This document shows, piece by piece, positions 1 to 58,271 of a stretch of DNA of 64,000 nt (its first letter is position 1; each line of letters opens with the position of its first letter). The DNA comes from Candidatus Kaiserbacteria bacterium (lineage in GTDB: Bacteria; Patescibacteriota; Minisyncoccia; Phycocordibacterales; UBA2100): contig JACROD010000014.1 in NCBI GenBank assembly GCA_016214605.1, positions 41,074 to 105,073 of the forward strand, written 5' to 3'. Under the pieces are notes generated by a model. It saw only the letters and a program-made list of their open reading frames with translations. It did no database searches and was not told the DNA's origin. Position numbers and translations under genes: made by a program.

Positions 1-732
1 CTCGTACAACGTCTCACCAAATACACCAAGGGCACTTGGTCGGGATTCATGAATCGTCCGACCAATGTCGACATGAACAAAAAACTCGTCGTCTTCTCGG
101 TCCGAGACATGGAAGACGACCTTAAGCCTGCCGCCATGTACATCATCACCCACCACATCTGGAACACAGTGCGCAAAGAACTCCGTAAGCGCCTTCTCGT
201 GATCGACGAAGCGTGGTGGATGATGCGTTCCGAAGACACCGCGTCGTTCCTCTTCTCGATCGCCAAGCGCGGGCGCAAATACTACCTCGGTATCTCGACC
301 ATCACCCAGGACGTCTCCGACTTCTTGAACTCTCCCTACGGCATCCCGATGATCACTAACTCGTCGATCCAGCTCTTGTTGCGCCAATCGCCGACATCGG
401 TCGATCTCGTGCAAAGCACATTCAAACTTTCTGACGAAGAGAAATATCTCTTACTCGAATCGGACGTAGGGGAAGGGATCTTCTTCGCAGGGCTCAAGCA
501 TGTGGCACTCAAGGTGATCGCCTCATATACCGAGGACCAAATCATCACCTCAGATCCTTCTCAGATCCTTGCCATCAAAAAAGCAAAGCAGCAGCTTGCC
601 GCCGTGAACGAGGGTGGCCCAGAAGCCGAAGTGGCCGCTGCTAATGTGGTCGCAGAGCACGCCACTCCGGGCGCTGACACCGCAGGGGTCGGCGCAAGCA
701 CGATCAACAGTGGTGCCTTGAGAGAGGTATGA
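1..732 (+). CDS. VirB4/TrbE-like type IV secretion ATPase, C-terminal portion (5' end lies outside the window)
   Basis: reading frame is open from base 1 to the stop at 732; motifs LLVIDEAWWMM (Walker B-like DEAW) and KYYLGISTITQDVSDF typical of the VirB4/CagE C-terminal ATPase domain. Confidence 0.6.
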   Translation, partial: LVQRLTKYTKGTWSGFMNRPTNVDMNKKLVVFSVRDMEDDLKPAAMYIITHHIWNTVRKELRKRLLVIDEAWWMMRSEDTASFLFSIAKRGRKYYLGISTITQDVSDFLNSPYGIPMITNSSIQLLLRQSPTSVDLVQSTFKLSDEEKYLLLESDVGEGIFFAGLKHVALKVIASYTEDQIITSDPSQILAIKKAKQQLAAVNEGGPEAEVAAANVVAEHATPGADTAGVGASTINSGALREV

Positions 733-1079
733 CGAAAAGACGGATCAGTACATTGAGCGGTTTTCTGCTCTTTGCGTCCGCTCTCATTGTGGATGGGGTT
801 CAGGCATTGGTCGACCTCCTCGTCCTCATTCCCGGGATAGGTATCGTACTGGCTTTTGCTCTCGGCGTGGTCGTCGACGTATCTGCCTGTTTTCTCTTTG
901 GCTTCTGGTTCTCTCATTTGGGACTGCCCTTGCTGACGCGTTACCCACTTGGATTTCTCGGAACACTCGTCATTGAAAATATCCCCGGATTGAATTCACT
1001 CCCCACATGGACTCTTTTTGTGGCCAAGATCATTGCACAAGAGCGTATACGAGAGGGGACGTCTTCAGACGAGGTATAA
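729..1079 (+). CDS. small integral membrane protein (possible T4SS component)
   Basis: ATGA start/stop overlap with the upstream gene; 116 aa with about three hydrophobic helices. Confidence 0.35.
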   Translation: MTKRRISTLSGFLLFASALIVDGVQALVDLLVLIPGIGIVLAFALGVVVDVSACFLFGFWFSHLGLPLLTRYPLGFLGTLVIENIPGLNSLPTWTLFVAKIIAQERIREGTSSDEV

Positions 1080-1087
1080 TACTGTGT

Positions 1088-2143
1088 ATGGCAATAGTGC
1101 AAAAACATTTTCTTTTCACATTGTTTTTGTTGGCACTTCTACTCACCGCGCCCATGGCGTATGCGCAGTCCGGAGCCATCTTCGTTAGTCCCAACCCTGA
1201 GGCAGTGGCGACCATTATCATGATTCCAAAAAATCCATCGCCCGGAGACACCGTGCACCTTACCGTGACCGGCGGATCACTACTCGACCTCCAAAACAGC
1301 ACTATTACTTGGTTTCAAAATGGCAAGCTTATTTCTAAAGGAGTCGGGTATGCGAGTCTCGACATTACCACTGGCACTCTTGGATCAGAGGATGACGTGA
1401 ATGTACAAGTTGACTCTCCGGACGGCGCGACGGCCGCGAGCTCGATCTCGATCATCCCGACACACGTCGACCTGCTCCTCGATTCCGATTCGTATATTCC
1501 GCCCTTCTACCGGGGCAGAGCACTGCCCTCCGCCGGTACTCACATGCAAGCGCAAGCGTTGGTATATTTCAAACGGAGCGACGGATCATTCATACCACCA
1601 AATTCGATCATATATACGTGGAAGGTGAATGGGCAGGTCATCGGAAATGTCTCAGGGAAAGGGAGGCAAACGGCAGTTCTTCCTGCACCGGTATTATTCG
1701 GGACCAGCAACGTCTCTATCGAGGCCGTATCGACCGATAATCTTTTTACTGGATCGGCATCTACCAATATCTCGTCTGTCGAACCTATTCTCATGCTTTA
1801 CGAAGACCATCCACTTTTCGGCATACTCTTTCATCGTGCCATGGGGCAAACGACCACTATTCCAGATTCTGAAATGACGTTTGCCGCAGTGCCTTATTTT
1901 ACTCAAGTGAAAAATCCCAACGACCCACAACTGCGCTATCATTGGATGGTAAACGGAAACCTTATCGTTGCCGACACTAACCATCCGAGTGAGATCGTTA
2001 TCAACGCCGACAAATCCAATGGGGAAGCCGCTATCACGCTTGCACTCAACCATGCGAGTAATTTTTTAATGAACGCAAAAGGAAGTTGGGACGTTATATT
2101 CAAGGTATTTGATCAAACAAACGCTTTTTTCTCTAATTTTTAA
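1088..2143 (+). CDS. secreted hypothetical protein
   Basis: internal ATG of track ORF 1007..2143 that begins right after the 1079 stop; N-terminal signal peptide MAIVQKHFLFTLFLLALLLTAPMAYAQ. Confidence 0.5.
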   Translation: MAIVQKHFLFTLFLLALLLTAPMAYAQSGAIFVSPNPEAVATIIMIPKNPSPGDTVHLTVTGGSLLDLQNSTITWFQNGKLISKGVGYASLDITTGTLGSEDDVNVQVDSPDGATAASSISIIPTHVDLLLDSDSYIPPFYRGRALPSAGTHMQAQALVYFKRSDGSFIPPNSIIYTWKVNGQVIGNVSGKGRQTAVLPAPVLFGTSNVSIEAVSTDNLFTGSASTNISSVEPILMLYEDHPLFGILFHRAMGQTTTIPDSEMTFAAVPYFTQVKNPNDPQLRYHWMVNGNLIVADTNHPSEIVINADKSNGEAAITLALNHASNFLMNAKGSWDVIFKVFDQTNAFFSNF

Positions 2144-2149
2144 TCTCTT

Positions 2150-3397
2150 ATGCATGCCACACGACTTTTCCTACTCTATCTACTCGCTGTCGTTATCGTC
2201 ATAATCCTTGGCGGATTCGTTGGGTGGTACTTCTTTTTGCATATACCACAAACGAAAGAGGCTGTAGTCGACGCGGCACGAGGACTTAATTCTTCGATAA
2301 ACCCTTTCACGGGCGGAAGTACGCAGGACAATATTCGCGTAGAGGTCGCCGGCAACTCCACCAGCACGGCCGAAGTGCCGACATCTGCGCTATGGCAAGT
2401 AGATAAGACGCCCGTCGCTGGCATGAATTTTGTTAAACATGCGACTTCCACTTCTCTAGATTATATACAGCGCGCAAACGGATACGTCTTTCGGGCCGAT
2501 CCGAAAACAAAGACGGTCGTTCGCCTAACGGAAACCCTGACACCAAAGATTTATGAGGCCTTCGTGAGTTCCGACGGTGCCGTGATCGCCCGCTCTCTCG
2601 ATGATTCCGGGTCGATCACCACATTTATGGCGACCGTGGGAGCCACCACATCAAAAACAAGTACTTCTACCGAACAAAACACATTGAGAGGCTCTTATGT
2701 CGCCAAAAATATCTCTTCTGTGGTCCCAAGCCCTACGACACACTCCATCTTTTATACCATTCCCAATGACATTGGAGGGGTCGATGGATACACCGCCCTC
2801 TGGGACGGATCGAAACCAAAAAAGATCTTCATTTCGATCATTTCTCACTGGACACCTCTATGGCTTTCGGACGGACGCCTTATTATCACAGAAAACCCTG
2901 CCGATGATATGCCGGGCTATGCCTATAGTGTGAGTAACGATGGCACTATGACACTATTGGTCGGCAACGTCCCAGGACTCACATTCCTGCCACTCTCATC
3001 CTCAAAAGCGGTCATTTACGGAGCATCTGCAAACGGCGTACTTTCACTTTTTGCCCAAGGGGCTGCCAGCACTACCCCAAACACCCTCAATATTCAAACG
3101 GTCGCCGATAAATGCGTGTGGCTGGGAGGTAAAAGTCTCATCGCTTACTGCGCTGTTCCGACGACTCCTCCTACAGGAAAATTCCTTGATCAGTGGTACC
3201 GCGGAGTTATTCACACTTCTGATTCATGGTGGAAAGTAGACGTCCAAAACAGTGTTGCCCTAGAAATATATTCACCGAAGACGACGAATAACGTCGACCT
3301 CGACGTCGAACGCCCCACCATTGATCCGAGTGGAAATTATATTGCCTTTATCAACGCGTCCGACAAATCGCTTTGGATGCTTAATATACCCCAATAA
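2150..3397 (+). CDS. membrane-anchored extracellular hypothetical protein
   Basis: 415 aa ORF; one N-terminal TM helix (LFLLYLLAVVIVIILGGFVGWYFF) followed by a Ser/Thr-rich ectodomain. Confidence 0.5.
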   Translation: MHATRLFLLYLLAVVIVIILGGFVGWYFFLHIPQTKEAVVDAARGLNSSINPFTGGSTQDNIRVEVAGNSTSTAEVPTSALWQVDKTPVAGMNFVKHATSTSLDYIQRANGYVFRADPKTKTVVRLTETLTPKIYEAFVSSDGAVIARSLDDSGSITTFMATVGATTSKTSTSTEQNTLRGSYVAKNISSVVPSPTTHSIFYTIPNDIGGVDGYTALWDGSKPKKIFISIISHWTPLWLSDGRLIITENPADDMPGYAYSVSNDGTMTLLVGNVPGLTFLPLSSSKAVIYGASANGVLSLFAQGAASTTPNTLNIQTVADKCVWLGGKSLIAYCAVPTTPPTGKFLDQWYRGVIHTSDSWWKVDVQNSVALEIYSPKTTNNVDLDVERPTIDPSGNYIAFINASDKSLWMLNIPQ

Positions 3398-3400
3398 TCT

Positions 3401-3841
3401 ATGCGTTCAGTAATAAAAATAAAGTACTGTCTTCGTATTGGATTGTTCTTACTCAGTATTTTTGGGTTGTTTATTTTGACCGCCACACTGACCTTCGCAC
3501 AACAAACAACGGCCGGCACGTCAAACTTCGTACCCCTTGTCGATCTTCCATCGCAGTCGTCAAAGTTTGCTGGCTTTTATTCTGCGCAGAACCTCAGCGC
3601 ATTTCTCAACCGACTGTTCTTTTTTGCAATCTCGCTCGGTGGCATACTTGCGGTCGGACGACTGGTCTATGCAGGATGGCTTTACACGATGGGCGACATG
3701 GGGGGAAACATCAAAAAAGCGAAGGAGATCATCGGTAATGTTGTGATCGGCCTCCTTCTTCTTCTTTCAATCTGGCTGATCTTGAACCAAATAAATCCAG
3801 AGATCCTAAATCTGAGTATTTTACGTAATCTCGGCGGATGA
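3401..3841 (+). CDS. TrbC/VirB2-like pilin-like protein
   Basis: 146 aa; signal peptide plus two hydrophobic helices (FFFAISLGGILAVGRLVYAGWLY and VVIGLLLLLSIWLILNQI), the VirB2/TrbC architecture; follows the VirB4-like gene. Confidence 0.4.
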   Translation: MRSVIKIKYCLRIGLFLLSIFGLFILTATLTFAQQTTAGTSNFVPLVDLPSQSSKFAGFYSAQNLSAFLNRLFFFAISLGGILAVGRLVYAGWLYTMGDMGGNIKKAKEIIGNVVIGLLLLLSIWLILNQINPEILNLSILRNLGG

Positions 3842-3945
3842 GCTGGTACCGCCACCGGCGGCGGCGCATCAGGCAGCTTTTAGTAGATATTTGGAGCAGG
3901 CTGGGCCAGCATCCGGACCATAAGATTGATCGTTGTAATATTGTC

Positions 3946-5186: not shown

Positions 5187-5528
5187 TTATTTTAAAATAC
5201 CATTTACCTTGAGTACCTGGGCCACATCTTCTGATAATTGCTCAAAAGTGGCTTTAGTACTCGATGAATTGGTATAAAAAGCCAGCGCCAGTGGTTGTTT
5301 GACCTGCGGCATGAGACCCTGCAAGACCGCTCGAAAACGACGCTTGATGAGATTGCGATCCACAGCCTTACGAGAGACTTTTTTGGAGACGATGCAGGCG
5401 GCTTTCGGGGGAGTGTCCACCGGAAGAGGAAAGATCGAAAGAGTAAAAAACACTCCGCGTACACGGCGTGTTTTTTGGCTTGAAAACAGCTTAAAATCGG
5501 CACGTGTGAGCCGAAATTTGGTAGGCAT
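5187..5528 (-). CDS. rnpA: ribonuclease P protein component
   Basis: internal ATG (MPTKFRLTRADF…) of track ORF 5187..5609; basic RnpA-like sequence; sits between rpmH and yidC. Confidence 0.75.
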   Translation of the reverse strand: MPTKFRLTRADFKLFSSQKTRRVRGVFFTLSIFPLPVDTPPKAACIVSKKVSRKAVDRNLIKRRFRAVLQGLMPQVKQPLALAFYTNSSSTKATFEQLSEDVAQVLKVNGILK

Positions 5529-5538
5529 TGGATGGCCG

Positions 5539-5673
5539 TTAGACAGTAAGTGCAGCGCGCCCCTTGCGGCGACGGCGAATAAGGACACGGGCGCCGGTCT
5601 TGGTAGCACTACGGACGAGAAATCCGTGTGTTTTGGCTCTTTTGCGCTTTTTTGGCTGGTATGTTCGCTTCAT
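5539..5673 (-). CDS. rpmH: 50S ribosomal protein L34
   Basis: not in the ORF track (44 aa); minus-strand translation [44 protein letters not shown]. Confidence 0.85.
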
Positions 5674-5708
5674 CGCGCCACTATAACCTTTCCACACCAA
5701 AACTCAAG

Positions 5709-5825
5709 GGCCACCAAATGAATTCGTTATTTTTTGTTCGAGGACCGAACCCGCAGGCTCGCGGAGCGGCCGTGAGGGCGCTCCGCGTTCCGCAGAACAA
5801 AAAATAACGAATTCATTTGGTGGCC
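5709..5825. repeat. 117-nt near-perfect palindrome (31-bp perfect arms, GC-rich 55-nt centre with inner 9-bp stem)
   Basis: ggccaccaaatgaattcgttattttttgttc at 5709-5739 is the exact reverse complement of 5795-5825; inner cgcggagcg/cgctccgcg. Confidence 0.85.
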
Positions 5826-5831
5826 TAACCA

Positions 5832-5902
5832 CTATCCACACCTTATCCACACCTTGTGAACATGTGGAGAAGAATACGTCTATCTTCTACTGTGTGAATA
5901 CG
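5832..5902 (+). promoter_or_regulatory. DnaA-box cluster and -10 element upstream of dnaA
   Basis: ctatccaca 5832-5840, ttatccaca 5843-5851 (perfect TTATCCACA), tgtggagaa 5863-5871; TATAAT at 5897-5902. Confidence 0.55.
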
Positions 5903-5935
5903 AGCGTATAATGAAGCCGTTAGTCGCGTGCACCT

Positions 5936-7288
5936 ATGATGGCAAACAGAGAACTCTGGCAGAACGCACTCGTACAGATCGAGCTTGGCACCTCTGAGAC
6001 GAGTTTCCGCACTTGGTTCCGCAACACCGACATCGCAAACAGGGAGGGGGGTGTCGTGCATGTGGCCGTCCCTTCCAAGATCGTCAAAGAGTGGTTGATG
6101 GACAAACACAACAAACTCATCCTCAAAGCGCTTCGCGGCCTTGATCCGACCATTCGGACGGTTGAATACACCATCCACAAATCCATCGCCCCCGTTGCCG
6201 ACCGAAAGGCTCCCCGTCCACAAGTCTCCGACAACGCCTCTCTGGACCTCAACAGCCTCTACATCGATAAACGAGACAATCTCAACCCACGGTACACCTT
6301 TGAGACCTTCGTTGTGGGACCCTTTAATCAACTCGCTCACGCAGCAGCCAAAGCTGTCCTTGACCGGCCCGGCCTTAGCTATAATCCGCTTTTTATTTAC
6401 GGATCGACCGGCCACGGAAAGACCCATTTGATCCAAGCGGTGGGTAATTATTTCAAAAAAGCCCACGCCAACAAAAAAGTCCTTTATGTGACTTCTGAGC
6501 GCTTTGCTATCGACTACATAAATGCGGTGCGTTCCGGCCACGCGAACAATTTTAAAGACCAATATCGGCAATACGATGTATTGATTATGGATGACGTCCA
6601 ATTCATTGCGAACACAGAAAAGACCCAAGAGGAACTTTTTCACCTTTTTAATGCGCTTCGCGACAACAATAAACAGATCGTCTTCTCGTCAGATAGGCAC
6701 CCCTCCTTACTTAACGGTTTTGAAGATCGTCTCAAGGGGCGTTTTGCCGGCGGTATGATCGCCGAGATCCCTGAACCGGACATAGAATCCCGTACTGCGA
6801 TCATTCGAGCAAAGATAGAACAGCATGGATTTTCGATCCCTGAGGATATTATTACCTACATAGCGGAAAATGTTCGCGGCAACATCAGAGAGTTGGAAGG
6901 TGTTCTTAATATGATCGTTTGTCGATCCCAACTGAAAGGAAAAGTGATCTCTCACGCGGATGTGCGCGCCCTCATTAAACACAACACGAAACCATCGAAG
7001 GGTGTTTCTGTGGAGGAAGTTGTTCGGCGTATCGCGCACTATTATGATATTGCCGAGAAAAGCATCTATGAAAAGACACGAAAAAAGGAGGTGGTGCGGC
7101 CCCGACAGGTGATTATGTATATTTTGCGTGAAGAATTTAACATCTCATACCCTTCGATAGGGGAGAAACTCGGGGGACGGGATCATACAACCGTGATTCA
7201 TTCGTGTGAGAAGATAAAAGAAGAGATGAAGACTAATAACTCCCTTGAGGCCGAAGTGGAGCATGTTCGATCCCTTATTCAGGTATAA
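5936..7288 (+). CDS. dnaA: chromosomal replication initiator DnaA
   Basis: 450 aa; Walker A GSTGHGKTHLIQA; AAA+ and C-terminal DNA-binding domain; followed by dnaN. Confidence 0.95.
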   Translation: MMANRELWQNALVQIELGTSETSFRTWFRNTDIANREGGVVHVAVPSKIVKEWLMDKHNKLILKALRGLDPTIRTVEYTIHKSIAPVADRKAPRPQVSDNASLDLNSLYIDKRDNLNPRYTFETFVVGPFNQLAHAAAKAVLDRPGLSYNPLFIYGSTGHGKTHLIQAVGNYFKKAHANKKVLYVTSERFAIDYINAVRSGHANNFKDQYRQYDVLIMDDVQFIANTEKTQEELFHLFNALRDNNKQIVFSSDRHPSLLNGFEDRLKGRFAGGMIAEIPEPDIESRTAIIRAKIEQHGFSIPEDIITYIAENVRGNIRELEGVLNMIVCRSQLKGKVISHADVRALIKHNTKPSKGVSVEEVVRRIAHYYDIAEKSIYEKTRKKEVVRPRQVIMYILREEFNISYPSIGEKLGGRDHTTVIHSCEKIKEEMKTNNSLEAEVEHVRSLIQV

Positions 7289-7525
7289 ATTGTGGATAAT
7301 CATGTGTATATGTGTATGAATAGTACGTTGAAAAGAGGTGCGGAGAGTAGAGGATATAGACAAGTGCTTACCCATACACTTCTTATACCCACATTAAATC
7401 ACCATTACGCACAAAGTTTTCAACAATCGGACATATGGAATAAATCCTTTCTTTTCAACAAAAAATTCAGTTTTCCCCATTATCCACACCACTAATAGAG
7501 TTAGTAAGTTTTTAAAAATTTTTCT
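7289..7525. promoter_or_regulatory. candidate oriC (dnaA-dnaN intergenic, AT-rich, DnaA boxes)
   Basis: perfect DnaA boxes tgtggataa 7291-7299 and ttatccaca 7480-7488 flanking an AT-rich stretch. Confidence 0.5.
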
Positions 7526-10860: not shown

Positions 10861-11115
10861 AACGTGTGGATATTGTACCGCTGATTTGGTGTTTTGGGCA
10901 ATGGGGCTTGTGAGTATGATCGGAAGTCTGCGGAGAATTTTGTTGCTGCGGAACTCGCTCTGGTGAGCTCAAACAGGTCGGTCACTCCTGTGCCCGACAC
11001 GGTAGTGAATGATTTGTATCTAATGTAGCATTACTTAACTCTAGTAAGAGTTGGACAAATTTGACTTGTCTTTATCACCAGTCCTCGCTGCCAAAATTCT
11101 CCGCGGACTTCCGAT

Positions 11116-11592
11116 CTACGTTGTTCGTGAGTGAGCTAAATGAGTCACTCCGACGGCGATCGCATCGTATTCATCATCATGTTTGATTTCTTTGTCTATT
11201 TTGAGCAATATTTTAAGCATTCGTGCCACTGTCGTTTTGTCGGCGCCCCCATATCCTGTTGATGCGTTCTTGATCTGTCCAGGGGTGTATTCAAAGACGG
11301 GGATATTGGCGAGTGCTGCAGTATTGAGTAGGGCACCGCGCACCTCAGCGACCTTCATGGCGGTCTTTTGGTTGTTTGTGAAGTAGAGTCGCTCCATCGC
11401 CACGTGGTCAGGGGTGTGCTCGCGCATGAGTCGCGCGCATCCGTCGGCGACTGCCGCGAGTCGGTCGGTAAACTCATCTTTGGGGGAGGTCTCGATACAG
11501 TCGGAATAGAGATATATCTCGCGACCATCCACCTTTTCCACAATAGCCACCCCGCAGCGGCCGTAGCCAGGATCAATTCCAAGGACTTTCAT
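11116..11592 (-). CDS. ruvC: Holliday junction resolvase RuvC
   Basis: 158 aa; MKVLGIDPGYGRCGVAI… RNase H-like fold with catalytic acidic residues. Confidence 0.9.
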   Translation of the reverse strand: MKVLGIDPGYGRCGVAIVEKVDGREIYLYSDCIETSPKDEFTDRLAAVADGCARLMREHTPDHVAMERLYFTNNQKTAMKVAEVRGALLNTAALANIPVFEYTPGQIKNASTGYGGADKTTVARMLKILLKIDKEIKHDDEYDAIAVGVTHLAHSRTT

Positions 11593-15400: not shown

Positions 15401-15488
15401 AAGAGAGAAAAAGGAGAAAAGCTATTGACTTTTCTATTTGGTATGATAAACTACTGCCTAGCTCACTAAAAACACAAAAAACGAAAAA

Positions 15489-15630
15489 ACAGGTGTGCGA
15501 TTCTCTCAACGATCGTGTCATCACCCAGGACGGCGGCAGTATGCCGCCCCGCGGAATTTTACTTCCCCTATCCTGAGGTCATGGCGCAGCTTTTCATGCA
15601 AAAGTGTCGTTGAGAGAATCGCGCACCTGT
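15489..15630. repeat. long-range inverted repeat (24-bp arms, one G-U-compatible mismatch, about 94-nt interior with inner hairpin)
   Basis: acaggtgtgcgattctctcaacga at 15489-15512 pairs with 15607-15630; flanked by A-run 5' and T-run 3'. Confidence 0.8.
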
Positions 15631-15696
15631 TTTAAAAAACAACTATCCACAAGATATCACCCAAGTGTGTGCGCTCAAAGTGATATTTATGGTGTG

Positions 15697-21009: not shown

Positions 21010-21501
21010 ATGGAGGGCCCACATTTTTTTGGCAAAGGGAAGGGAAGGGTCGCTGACAATATTGCCAAAATAGTGGCGGCGGGAATAACGTTTGGCGCTG
21101 GTGGGGCGGAGGCAAAAAACATACAGCAGTATGCGAGCACCCCATCAACTTTTGAAGAAAACCTTATACGATCTACACAGGAGGAGATGAAACAAAATGA
21201 AGCCGCCGAAATAGAAGCGGTCAAGCTTCTCACTCGGATCTCTCAGAGGGAGGCCTTTGAAAGGGATTCAAATGGGGTTCCGTTACGACAAGGCGAACAT
21301 AATAAACAAGTATATGCTCGGATCAATGGCCAGATCAGAGTATACATTGAAAAATACCCGGCTTACTTGAACCCAACCCCCGCACAAAAACTATTGAATA
21401 CTATCTCTAATATAGATGGGTGGGTGGATGACGATGTACACGCTCACACGATCAATTTTATCAAGTTTATGGTCGTGGCGCATCCTTCTGTGGTCAAATG
21501 A
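21010..21501 (+). CDS. hypothetical protein
   Basis: 163 aa ORF; stop overlaps tsaE start (ATGA). Confidence 0.45.
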   Translation: MEGPHFFGKGKGRVADNIAKIVAAGITFGAGGAEAKNIQQYASTPSTFEENLIRSTQEEMKQNEAAEIEAVKLLTRISQREAFERDSNGVPLRQGEHNKQVYARINGQIRVYIEKYPAYLNPTPAQKLLNTISNIDGWVDDDVHAHTINFIKFMVVAHPSVVK

Positions 21502-22004
21502 AAACAAAGATCGCGGGTACGGATGCGATGGAGACCTTTGCGCGCGAATTCATCTCGCAGCTTTCTCCTGTTGCCGGCGGAGCGACGATCATCGCGCTCT
21601 CAGGCGACCTCGGTGCGGGCAAGACTACGCTCGCGCAGGGGATCGCGCGGGCGCTGGGGGTGGAGGAGGCGGTTACGAGTCCTACCTTTGTGCTGGAAAA
21701 GGTGTATGAGCTAGGTAATCCTAGTGCGGAGGCGGGAGCACTTTTTTCCGCTTCCGCCTATCGTTCGGGTCGGGAAAAAGTGCTCCCGCCTCCGCGCCCC
21801 TGGACACACCTCATCCACATCGATGCATACCGACTCGTAAGCGAACACGAGCTCGAAGTGCTCGGCTGGCACGAAATGGCGCAGAATCCCGGCAATCTGA
21901 TCGTGATCGAATGGCCAGAGATGGTCGCGGAACTTATTCCTGTGGATGCAATACGCATTACTTTCTCTGGTTCTGGAGAGGTGCGAGACATTTCCATCAA
22001 TTGA
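21498..22004 (+). CDS. tsaE: tRNA threonylcarbamoyladenosine biosynthesis protein TsaE
   Basis: P-loop ALSGDLGAGKTTLAQGIA and HIDAYRL motif typical of YjeE/TsaE. Confidence 0.8.
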   Translation: MKTKIAGTDAMETFAREFISQLSPVAGGATIIALSGDLGAGKTTLAQGIARALGVEEAVTSPTFVLEKVYELGNPSAEAGALFSASAYRSGREKVLPPPRPWTHLIHIDAYRLVSEHELEVLGWHEMAQNPGNLIVIEWPEMVAELIPVDAIRITFSGSGEVRDISIN

Positions 22005-57713: not shown

Positions 57714-58271
57714 ATGTCTTTTTTCACCGGCAAAGGAGATGGGGGGACGACGAAGCTTTTTGACTCGCCACAAGGGGTGAGAGTCTCCAAATCCTCACCG
57801 ATCTTCGAGTGTTTGGGTCAGCTCGACGAGCTCAATAGTATTACCGGGTGGTGTAAGGTCGCTTGTCCCGACGATCTCTCGATCGACGGACGCTTGGGCA
57901 AAGATATTCTTCGCGAAGTACAGAACCATCTTTTTACCATTCAGGCTGAGGTCGCTGGTGCGCCCAAGAGCGTGCCGCCCGAGAGTGTCGAAGAGGTGAG
58001 TGCACTCATCAAAAGCATCGAATCACAATTACCCGAGGTGAAGAGTTTTCTCGTGCCGGGTGGGACGGAATTCTCCGCGCGCCTCGATATCGCCCGGGCG
58101 ATATCGAGGCGCGCGGAGCGCCGACTCGTAATGCTTCACGAGTCGGGGGAGCGCGCCGTATCCGAGTCGAGCCGCGCGTATGCCAACAGACTCTCGTCAC
58201 TTTTTTATGCGTTCACACGATTTACAAATCATCATTTCAGCGTGATAGAATATCCGCCGGAGTATAAGTGA
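57714..58271 (+). CDS. PduO-type ATP:cob(I)alamin adenosyltransferase-family protein
   Basis: N-terminus MSFFTGKGDGGTTKLF characteristic of PduO/MMAB family. Confidence 0.7.
   Translation: MSFFTGKGDGGTTKLFDSPQGVRVSKSSPIFECLGQLDELNSITGWCKVACPDDLSIDGRLGKDILREVQNHLFTIQAEVAGAPKSVPPESVEEVSALIKSIESQLPEVKSFLVPGGTEFSARLDIARAISRRAERRLVMLHESGERAVSESSRAYANRLSSLFYAFTRFTNHHFSVIEYPPEYK

Follow-up and report, generated by a model that had tools for sequence, protein, structure and literature searches.

Copies of the Rickettsia palindromic elements (RPEs) share sequence along their whole length and sit in Rickettsia genes, and the attC sites of integrons combine conserved R''/L''-L'/R' boxes at their ends with a variable centre and extrahelical bases. 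MITE copies share terminal inverted repeats and usually target-site duplications and occur as many near-identical copies (PMC10969869), and REPs, with a length of 20-40 nt, possess a conserved GTAG/CGTC head and are present in high copy number (PMC3733652). Equally, DNA mini-hairpins closed by a GNA triloop have been described at the priming sites of G4 and RSF1010 ssiA (PMC13037366), and the same loop type has also been recognized in Streptomyces telomere palindromes, which resemble the parvoviral 'rabbit ears' (PMC4513846). Template switching between inverted repeats is known to make the arms homogeneous and to invert the spacers (PMC8604942, PMC7202029).

The palindrome considered here is located in a genome of Candidatus Kaiserbacteria, a CPR bacterium, on a stretch of DNA of 64 kb that is called the window throughout; the DnaA encoded there matches a Candidatus Kaiserbacteria protein at 100% identity. 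To our knowledge, replication origins of CPR bacteria have not been characterized experimentally, and a literature search retrieved no description of such elements in CPR bacteria. The element lies near the GC-skew switch, with the change in sign of the skew at approximately 4-6 kb of the window.

Architecture and setting of the palindrome

The 117-nt palindrome in the rpmH-dnaA spacer exceeds all other inverted repeats of the window in length, four of which are also long. Two arms of 31 nt each (5709-5739 and 5795-5825) that are 100% complementary enclose 55 nt; the left arm, GGCCACCAAATGAATTCGTTATTTTTTGTTC, consists of an outer part of 18 nt specific for the locus and an inner part of 13 nt (TTATTTTTTGTTC) that belongs to a conserved unit, and the right arm is its exact reverse complement. 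The enclosed GC-rich sequence, the 'B-type' core (5740-5794, plus strand), is identical in the relatives L001 and L003 and at the loci L010 and L012, and forms together with the inner arms of 13 nt an 81-nt unit (5727-5807) with a copy of 100% identity at the unrelated locus L012. Inside the core, the stem cgcggagcg/cgctccgcg (5760-5768 and 5779-5787) extends to 12 nt at 92% around a GTGA loop, which gives the inner hairpin CGCGGAGCG-G-CC / GTGA loop / GG-G-CGCTCCGCG at 5760-5787 of the plus strand, and the word CCGCAGG (5751-5757, plus strand) has the form of a GNA-triloop DNA mini-hairpin and may act as one. Folded as RNA, the palindrome reaches -80.6 kcal/mol (z = -12.6); folded as DNA, its two strands reach -54.2 and -51.4 kcal/mol (z = -12.6 and -13.1). 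The first-pass annotation had described perfect 31-nt arms around a GC-rich 55-nt centre, a 9-bp inner stem in this centre and a capacity of nearly the whole element to form a hairpin; direct sequence comparison bears out the first, the second proved to be part of the longer stem around the GTGA loop, and the folding z values agree with the third. A search with the 31-nt arm allowing up to three mismatches yielded no further instance in the 64-kb window, and none in 100 shuffles.

The genes jag, yidC, rnpA and rpmH are arranged on the minus strand and are followed by dnaA, dnaN and a PBP gene. Between rpmH (ribosomal protein L34; 5539-5673, minus strand) and dnaA (5936-7288, plus strand), the palindrome occupies the gap from the rpmH -35 to the first DnaA box. 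On its left side, the rpmH promoter-like site TTGAGT-16-TATAGT (5680-5707, minus strand) places its -35 at 5707-5702, 1 nt from the palindrome. On its right side, a cluster of DnaA boxes conserved in relatives extends over 5832-5871, with CTATCCACA at 5832 and TTATCCACA at 5843 on the plus strand and TTCTCCACA at 5863 on the minus strand, so that the divergent context just upstream of a DnaA-box cluster, as initially annotated, holds true with the first box starting 6 nt past the palindrome. The likely dnaA -10, TATAAT at 5907-5912 of the plus strand, is embedded in GCGTATAATG (5904-5913), which is kept in nearly all 80 relatives. The rpmH -35 sequence AAACTCAAG and CACTATA are equally kept in relatives; AAACTCAAG is present in the near relatives whose sequences still include the upstream region (L001-L004, L006-L008, L095-L098), and more distant species show variants of the -35 at this left landmark, for example TTCAAC. 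On the right side, almost all of them preserve the DnaA boxes.

Further upstream, genes for a TraG-like P-loop ATPase and T4SS-pilin-like proteins (approximately 1-3900 of the window) adjoin jag-yidC-rnpA-rpmH in all close relatives. These genes next to the origin were compared in L001, L004, L006 and L008, and the TraG-like gene of L008 contains an intein with a LAGLIDADG domain.

In the dnaA-dnaN spacer two perfect DnaA boxes are found (at 7291-7299 and in the region 7480-7525), the second of which is followed by TAATAGAGTTAGTAAG and an AT-rich run (TTTTTAAAAATTTTT). The AT-rich stretch after TAATAGAGTTAGTAAG would be the likelier unwinding region, 1.7 kb from the palindrome, and the spacer plausibly holds a DnaA-trio and an unwinding element, which would imply a bipartite origin. 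As a DNA-unwinding element of oriC, 7480-7525 is a better candidate than the palindrome, which has a GC-rich core and is absent in approximately 20-25 of the 80 relatives.

Occupancy of the site and exchange of its cores

Relatives were sampled as contigs encoding a DnaA 91-98% identical to that of the window and as 80 species genomes. The comparison of the rpmH-dnaA spacer across relatives, which had been proposed as a check on the initial annotation, revealed a structured element in about half of the species and an empty site in others. With few mismatches allowed, a long palindrome is located between the rpmH -35 and the DnaA boxes in approximately 40 of 80 species, and perfect arms of at least 16 nt are seen at the site in 21 of 79 loci; in approximately 20-25 of the 80 species, the spacer comprises approximately 148-210 nt without any inverted repeat, and the complete genome L031 (CP066682.1) has no palindrome at the site. 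The spacer of the window measures 262 nt and without the 117-nt element 145 nt, similar to empty spacers. Because this remainder matches the empty spacers of other species, the palindrome is a facultative insertion that separates the rpmH -35 from the DnaA-box cluster in approximately half of the related species. Considering the loci of 79 species, 22 perfect long palindromes fall into the site of approximately 250 bp and 6 into the remaining approximately 540 kb, an enrichment of approximately 100-fold per base at the rpmH-dnaA site. The orientation of the core is the same in approximately 30 of 33 copies at the site.

In other Paceibacteria (L049, L051, L061, L075, L084), unrelated imperfect inverted repeats made of TAGCnnn-type heptads are observed approximately 100-350 nt upstream of dnaA, and an inverted repeat at the rpmH-dnaA position is common beyond the core families detailed below. 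Furthermore, short-read contigs end in or beside the palindrome, as at position 1 of L005 and at the contig starts of L098 and L009. Assemblies tend to break at the palindrome, and the breaks could also reflect mixed core orientations in the population.

Family A, with the core GTCTCGCAGGCCGACGGGCCGAGAG..., is present in many species, family B, the type of the window, in the window and its near relatives, and family C, with the core ...GAACCTCGCGCAGC...AGTGGTGATA...GTTC at a fixed length of approximately 83 nt, in at least 10 species. The word CGCAG is common to all three, as CCGCAGG in B, TCGCAGG in A and GCGCAGC in C. On the DnaA tree the families are interleaved, and at least three core families replace one another at the rpmH-dnaA site. 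A is found in L004, whereas in L005, whose dnaA is 94% identical to that of L004 at the nucleotide level, a flipped B core is combined with L001-like arms; the A core of L062 is flipped with respect to other A copies. Truncated remnants of C are found beside A elements in L025 and L079 and beside a complete C element in L032, and tandem elements occupy the site in L008/L015 and L067. Another module, D, is a hairpin of 52 nt, GACCAAWTTTTC-(variable stem)-GAAAAATGGAARTGCCCYKGTGGTG, which lies within the B core in L002, L006 and L007 and constitutes the only large difference between L002 and L003, otherwise 99.3% identical. It is positioned at 2630-2681 in L002, at approximately 5766-5817 in L006, at 8735-8873 in L008 and at approximately 2760-2830, upstream of dnaA, in L090; in the dnaN-PBP spacer of L008, D lies inside an arm-flanked element of approximately 200 nt, where the spacer of relatives measures 5-11 nt. 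Modules thus nest inside each other and the core is occasionally flipped.

A metagenome scan for the B core identified three unrelated intergenic loci, each with different perfect arms of approximately 33 nt. The copy in L010 is situated between pilB-like and pilC-like genes in a region that is not syntenic with the window, the copy in L011 in a divergent spacer upstream of tatA and the copy in L012 between convergent genes. Exactly the 81 nt of the unit are common to L012 and the window, and the similarity ends abruptly beyond. Despite their different loci, L010 and L011 have arms that are homologous to each other, and in all four loci (4/4) the B core has the sense orientation relative to the neighbouring gene. 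Among 185,579 species genomes, none matched a 25-mer of the arm. An origin of the arms in spacer-like or foreign sequence was considered and rejected, as a 22-mer of the arm, the B core and the A core are all absent from viral contigs.

The dnaA genes of the window and L001 possess a nucleotide identity of 84.5% and a third-codon identity of only 58%, so neutral sites are near saturation between the two. Despite these nearly saturated synonymous sites, the core is identical at 55 of 55 positions in the window, L001 and L003, and most arm positions have changed between the window and its relatives, with their complementarity preserved. Among seven B-type copies, 24 of 31 arm pairs have changed on both sides with 95.9% of the cells paired; in family A, as represented by 11 species, both sides have changed in 15 of 18 arm pairs (96.5% of cells paired), in 2 of 4 pairs of the hairpin GGCC-GACG-GGCC and in 5 of 7 pairs of the hairpin CTGCCGC-AGCA-GCGGCAG, the two hairpins being paired at 100%. 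For the B-type alignment, the observed value was reached on all five measures by none of 500 shuffles, and sliding the 3' partners by one to three columns lowers the pairing to 40-53%. G·U accounts for approximately 4 of 217 cells in the arms of the B-type alignment and for approximately 1-2% of the stem cells overall in the B and A alignments. Upon DNA folding, family A adopts a Y- or T-shape, and the B core of the window has only one strong inner hairpin. An early view of the arms as 'hypervariable', derived from DnaA proteins that are 97-98% identical, was dropped in the light of the third-codon positions of dnaA; the arms appear to evolve at about the neutral rate.

An HMM search of the 64-kb window with the A, B and C cores recovered a single B copy and neither A nor C. 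None of the remaining long inverted repeats can therefore be recognized as a member of these families. One of them, a palindrome of 70 nt with perfect 21-nt arms (21726-21795), lies in-frame in tsaE (ORF 21498-22004). Compared to the solved 5np9_A, the TsaE protein of the window possesses approximately 28 extra residues (73-104) exactly at the palindrome, and its Pfam TsaE match is split in two; it is a palindromic insertion in frame, comparable to the RPEs of Rickettsia. The PBP-ruvC spacer harbours an inverted repeat (10918-11116) with 25-nt arms (96%) and a 149-nt centre without a recognizable A, B or C core; as the spacer of five relatives (L001, L002, L004, L005 and L008) comprises approximately 60 nt without an inverted repeat, it is a lineage-specific palindromic insertion. 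Between ruvB on the minus strand and a plus-strand gene, a further inverted repeat (15486-15633) shows 27-nt arms (96%) and a GC-rich centre of 94 nt, and a DnaA-box-like CTATCCACA (15643) follows 10 nt after it in an arrangement as at dnaA. A perfect palindrome of 46 nt without spacer (58073-58118) is contained in the gene for a PduO-type cobalamin adenosyltransferase (ORF 57714-58271). It is not an insertion, since the Pfam match is one unbroken stretch, and may be a quasi-palindrome made perfect within coding sequence.

Mobile element, origin structure or transcript

About half of our confidence goes to the explanation that the palindrome is a non-autonomous modular palindromic DNA element, belonging to a family in Candidatus Kaiserbacteria and related Paceibacteria that is MITE- or REP-like with variable arms. 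Each member of this family appears to have a conserved GC-rich core of approximately 55-85 nt that forms one or two small hairpins and is centred in a long perfect stem, of which only the pairing is constrained and not the sequence. Such an element could extrude as a T- or Y-shaped hairpin or as a cruciform and would spread or be exchanged as DNA, by transposition and/or by gene conversion that would start from the conserved core shared by the copies. Core-seeded transposition or gene conversion would explain why identical cores are found beside unrelated outer arms, and mobility and/or gene conversion among copies would equally keep the core uniform. The arms would drift neutrally and be kept perfect by hairpin-templated correction, that is intra-strand template switching. 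The distribution of the element suggests that it is mobile, but neither a transposase among the adjoining genes nor a target-site duplication at the inspected junctions nor a conserved terminal inverted repeat was found, and the abrupt change from 100% to no identity inside a perfect stem, as between the window and L012, requires either gene conversion or insertion into a pre-existing palindrome to be assumed. In this view, the rpmH-dnaA spacer would be a hot spot or safe haven, where elements preferentially land or are retained. Against neutral retention speaks how long the element has stayed at a single orthologous site, which may point to selection: C is kept at fixed length in at least 10 species, approximately 30 of 33 copies share their orientation and unrelated inverted repeats occur at the same site in other lineages; a benefit of the palindrome to origin function or to the control of dnaA/rpmH is possible.

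A substantially less probable, though not negligible, alternative views the palindrome as a dedicated cis-acting DNA structure of the origin region, which would form a T-shaped hairpin or cruciform with stable GNA/GNNA mini-loops when the spacer is negatively supercoiled or single-stranded. Recognized by its structure, it would then act as a signal, possibly as an entry site for primase or RNA polymerase like ssi/sso, as a supercoil sink or by keeping the DnaA filament apart from the rpmH promoter. As only the shape would matter, one sequence family could stand in for another. The enrichment at the site among the 79 loci (22 perfect palindromes in approximately 250 bp against 6 in approximately 540 kb), the unrelated types of inverted repeat at the same site in other lineages, the nearly fixed orientation (approximately 30 to 3) and the position beside DnaA boxes at the GC-skew switch are consistent with such a structure, as are the fixed length of family C across at least 10 species, the conservation of the core while neutral sites are saturated, the covariation of the inner hairpins of family A (2/4 and 5/7 pairs changed on both sides, 100% paired) and a CGCAG motif shaped like the mini-hairpins of the G4 and RSF1010 ssiA priming sites and of Streptomyces telomere palindromes. 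However, approximately 20-25 of 80 species, including the complete genome L031 (CP066682.1), do without a palindrome here, the same core is found at loci unrelated to replication, and the probable DnaA-trio and AT-rich unwinding region is 1.7 kb away in the dnaA-dnaN spacer. The cruciform near the origin which the first-pass annotation had listed among its three candidates is accordingly upheld as physically plausible and as fitting the site preference, but not as an indispensable part of the origin, given the species that dispense with it and the likely unwinding region elsewhere. Slightly more doubtful still is the elaborated version in which the Kaiserbacteria lineage would keep an orientation-locked T-shaped DNA hairpin between the rpmH promoter and the DnaA boxes. 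This hairpin would work in cis through its structure, in chromosome replication or in the control of dnaA, for example as an ssi-like priming or entry site or a supercoil-driven cruciform, with at least three unrelated core families and any stem able to substitute for one another and with the copies elsewhere as secondary sites of the same function.

It is improbable that the palindrome is a gene or module for a structured ncRNA, in which the long stem would be a helix for processing or stability, cut for example by RNase III to release the core, and the core would be the functional RNA. Conserved core and covarying helices, an inner hairpin with a GNRA-type GTGA loop, three G·U-compatible changes on the plus strand in L095 and the sense orientation of the B core to the neighbouring gene in 4 of 4 loci are compatible with an RNA, but stems of 31-33 bp without any wobble are atypical of RNA genes, G·U amounting to approximately 1-2% across the alignments, and flipped copies exist in L005 and L062. 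A minus-strand promoter-like TTCACA-18-GATAGT ends 6 nt from the right arm and is the only such site reading into the element; it is made of DnaA boxes and therefore conserved for another reason, and the element at the dnaA site stands outside both recognized transcription units, upstream of both promoters. Rfam covariance searches gave no match with E<=10 over 5300-6100 for B and none with E<=1 for the A, C and D loci, and at gathering score the whole window yielded tRNAs only. Mismatches in the arms of imperfect copies, read on the plus strand, comprise 19 G·T and 11 A·C, which is not significant, with frequent transversions, and so display no strand preference of mismatch types. The small structured RNA suggested initially thus gains no positive support from Rfam, from G·U pairs, which are almost absent, or from strand-specific wobble in the mismatches. 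A terminator or insulator between the divergent rpmH and dnaA units is hardly to be expected: the hairpin is very stable, CUUGAGUUUUGG follows it on the minus strand and T-runs follow the stem in some relatives, but divergent genes leave nothing to terminate, the element being upstream of both promoters, a T-run lies inside the 5' arm rather than after the stem, and the flanking U-tract is the rpmH -35 and inconsistent across species. A scan for intrinsic terminators found none at the element, where a GC-rich stem with a direct T-run was looked for, in line with the original argument that a terminator is unlikely in the absence of convergent genes. Quite as remote is an inverton, with the arms as recombination sites and a flip of the core altering dnaA or rpmH expression. 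Both core orientations do exist (L005 against L001, L062 against other A copies), but only between lineages and at approximately 30 to 3 across species; the GC-rich 55-nt core contains no promoter-like site, no recombinase gene is nearby in the window or in relatives, a core flip in a perfect palindrome is indistinguishable from reversal of the whole element, and 55 bp would be very short for recombinase synapsis. A fold-back chimera arising as an artefact of assembly or amplification, to which contigs ending in or beside the palindrome such as L005 could point, can practically be discounted with the same architecture at the same site in independent JGI, ENA, NCBI and Logan assemblies of dozens of species. 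A palindrome acting at the DNA level is favoured by the lack of an Rfam match, by Watson-Crick stems without strand-biased wobble, by the position upstream of both promoters and by the lack of a terminator.

In one large lineage of CPR bacteria, a long perfect palindrome that belongs to one of several exchangeable element families habitually borders the region of the DnaA boxes. If these elements are merely selfish, they represent a new type of palindromic repeat in bacteria, in which the centre is conserved and the arms are free, and would illustrate the homogenization of arms and the conversion of cores in very small genomes. If functional, they would provide a bacterial origin, or the regulation of dnaA/rpmH, with a component that is defined by its structure and not by its sequence, a possibility that the covarying alignments make testable. 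As contigs break at the palindrome, it equally serves as a warning to annotators and assemblers.

Comparison with known palindromic systems

Integron attC sites were rejected as relatives of the element, as the layout is opposite, with conserved centre and varying ends, and the stem is perfect without bulges. Equally, parS, DUE, hammerhead/twister and SRP RNA were dismissed on layout or absent Rfam matches. With the Rickettsia palindromic elements the family shares a palindromic element in a reduced genome, and the second palindrome of the window is in-frame in tsaE; there is, however, no sequence relation, and the element studied is intergenic.

Parvovirus T/Y-shaped terminal hairpins and Streptomyces telomere palindromes (PMC4513846) are similar in their long stem around small hairpins, clearest in family A, in GCA-type loops and in 'flip/flop'-like core orientations. 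These ends are used for end replication, whereas the palindrome is internal to the chromosome and its B core has one strong inner hairpin. The ssi/sso signals (phage G4 ori, RSF1010 ssiA, RC-plasmid sso; PMC13037366) are comparable as strand-specific DNA hairpins with GNA mini-hairpins near a replication origin, and their structural prerequisites, namely a stable hairpin, the CCGCAGG mini-hairpin motif and an orientation bias, are present in the palindrome. The likeness of CGCAG to the GNA mini-hairpins of priming sites is a resemblance; the element shows no sequence homology to ssi/sso signals, is dispensable in many relatives and occurs also far from the origin. Inverted repeats homogenized by template switching (PMC8604942, PMC7202029) also keep perfect arms despite divergence and occasionally invert their spacer. 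Template switching is a mutational process and not an element family, and would explain the upkeep of the arms, but not origin or function.

Bacterial MITEs such as Correia/NEMIS, ERIC, RUP and Nezha (PMC10969869) correspond to the element in being small, non-coding, hairpin-forming, intergenic, polymorphic for presence and absence, dispersed, and nested or tandem. Dispersed copies at four loci and empty orthologous sites were found, with one copy in the 64 kb of the window. Among the window, L010/L011, L012 and L006 the outer arms are unrelated and the inner 11-13 nt shared, where MITEs would conserve their terminal inverted repeats; by inspection, no direct repeat is seen at the junctions of the window, L010, L011 and L012, and no transposase is evident among the genes adjoining the element. 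The palindrome family differs from MITEs in its conserved centre, in arms that vary between copies, in the lack of a visible duplication and in its apparently low copy number. Of the three candidates named at the outset, the MITE-like insertion consequently comes closest, with an element that is absent from the spacer of many relatives and a core that recurs at unrelated loci; a simple MITE it is not, since non-orthologous copies never share full-length arms, no target-site duplication is visible and the 64 kb hold one copy. REP/BIME sequences with their RAYT transposases (PMC3733652) are similar in being palindromic, GC-rich and intergenic, in acting or moving as DNA hairpins and in following orientation rules; the palindrome, at one copy in 64 kb, differs with its 117 nt, perfect 31-bp stem, asymmetric 55-nt core and arm termini that vary (GGCC, GCGC, AAGA and others). 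Although the features that define a MITE are not those of this family, the element works most like a MITE or a REP-type repeat.
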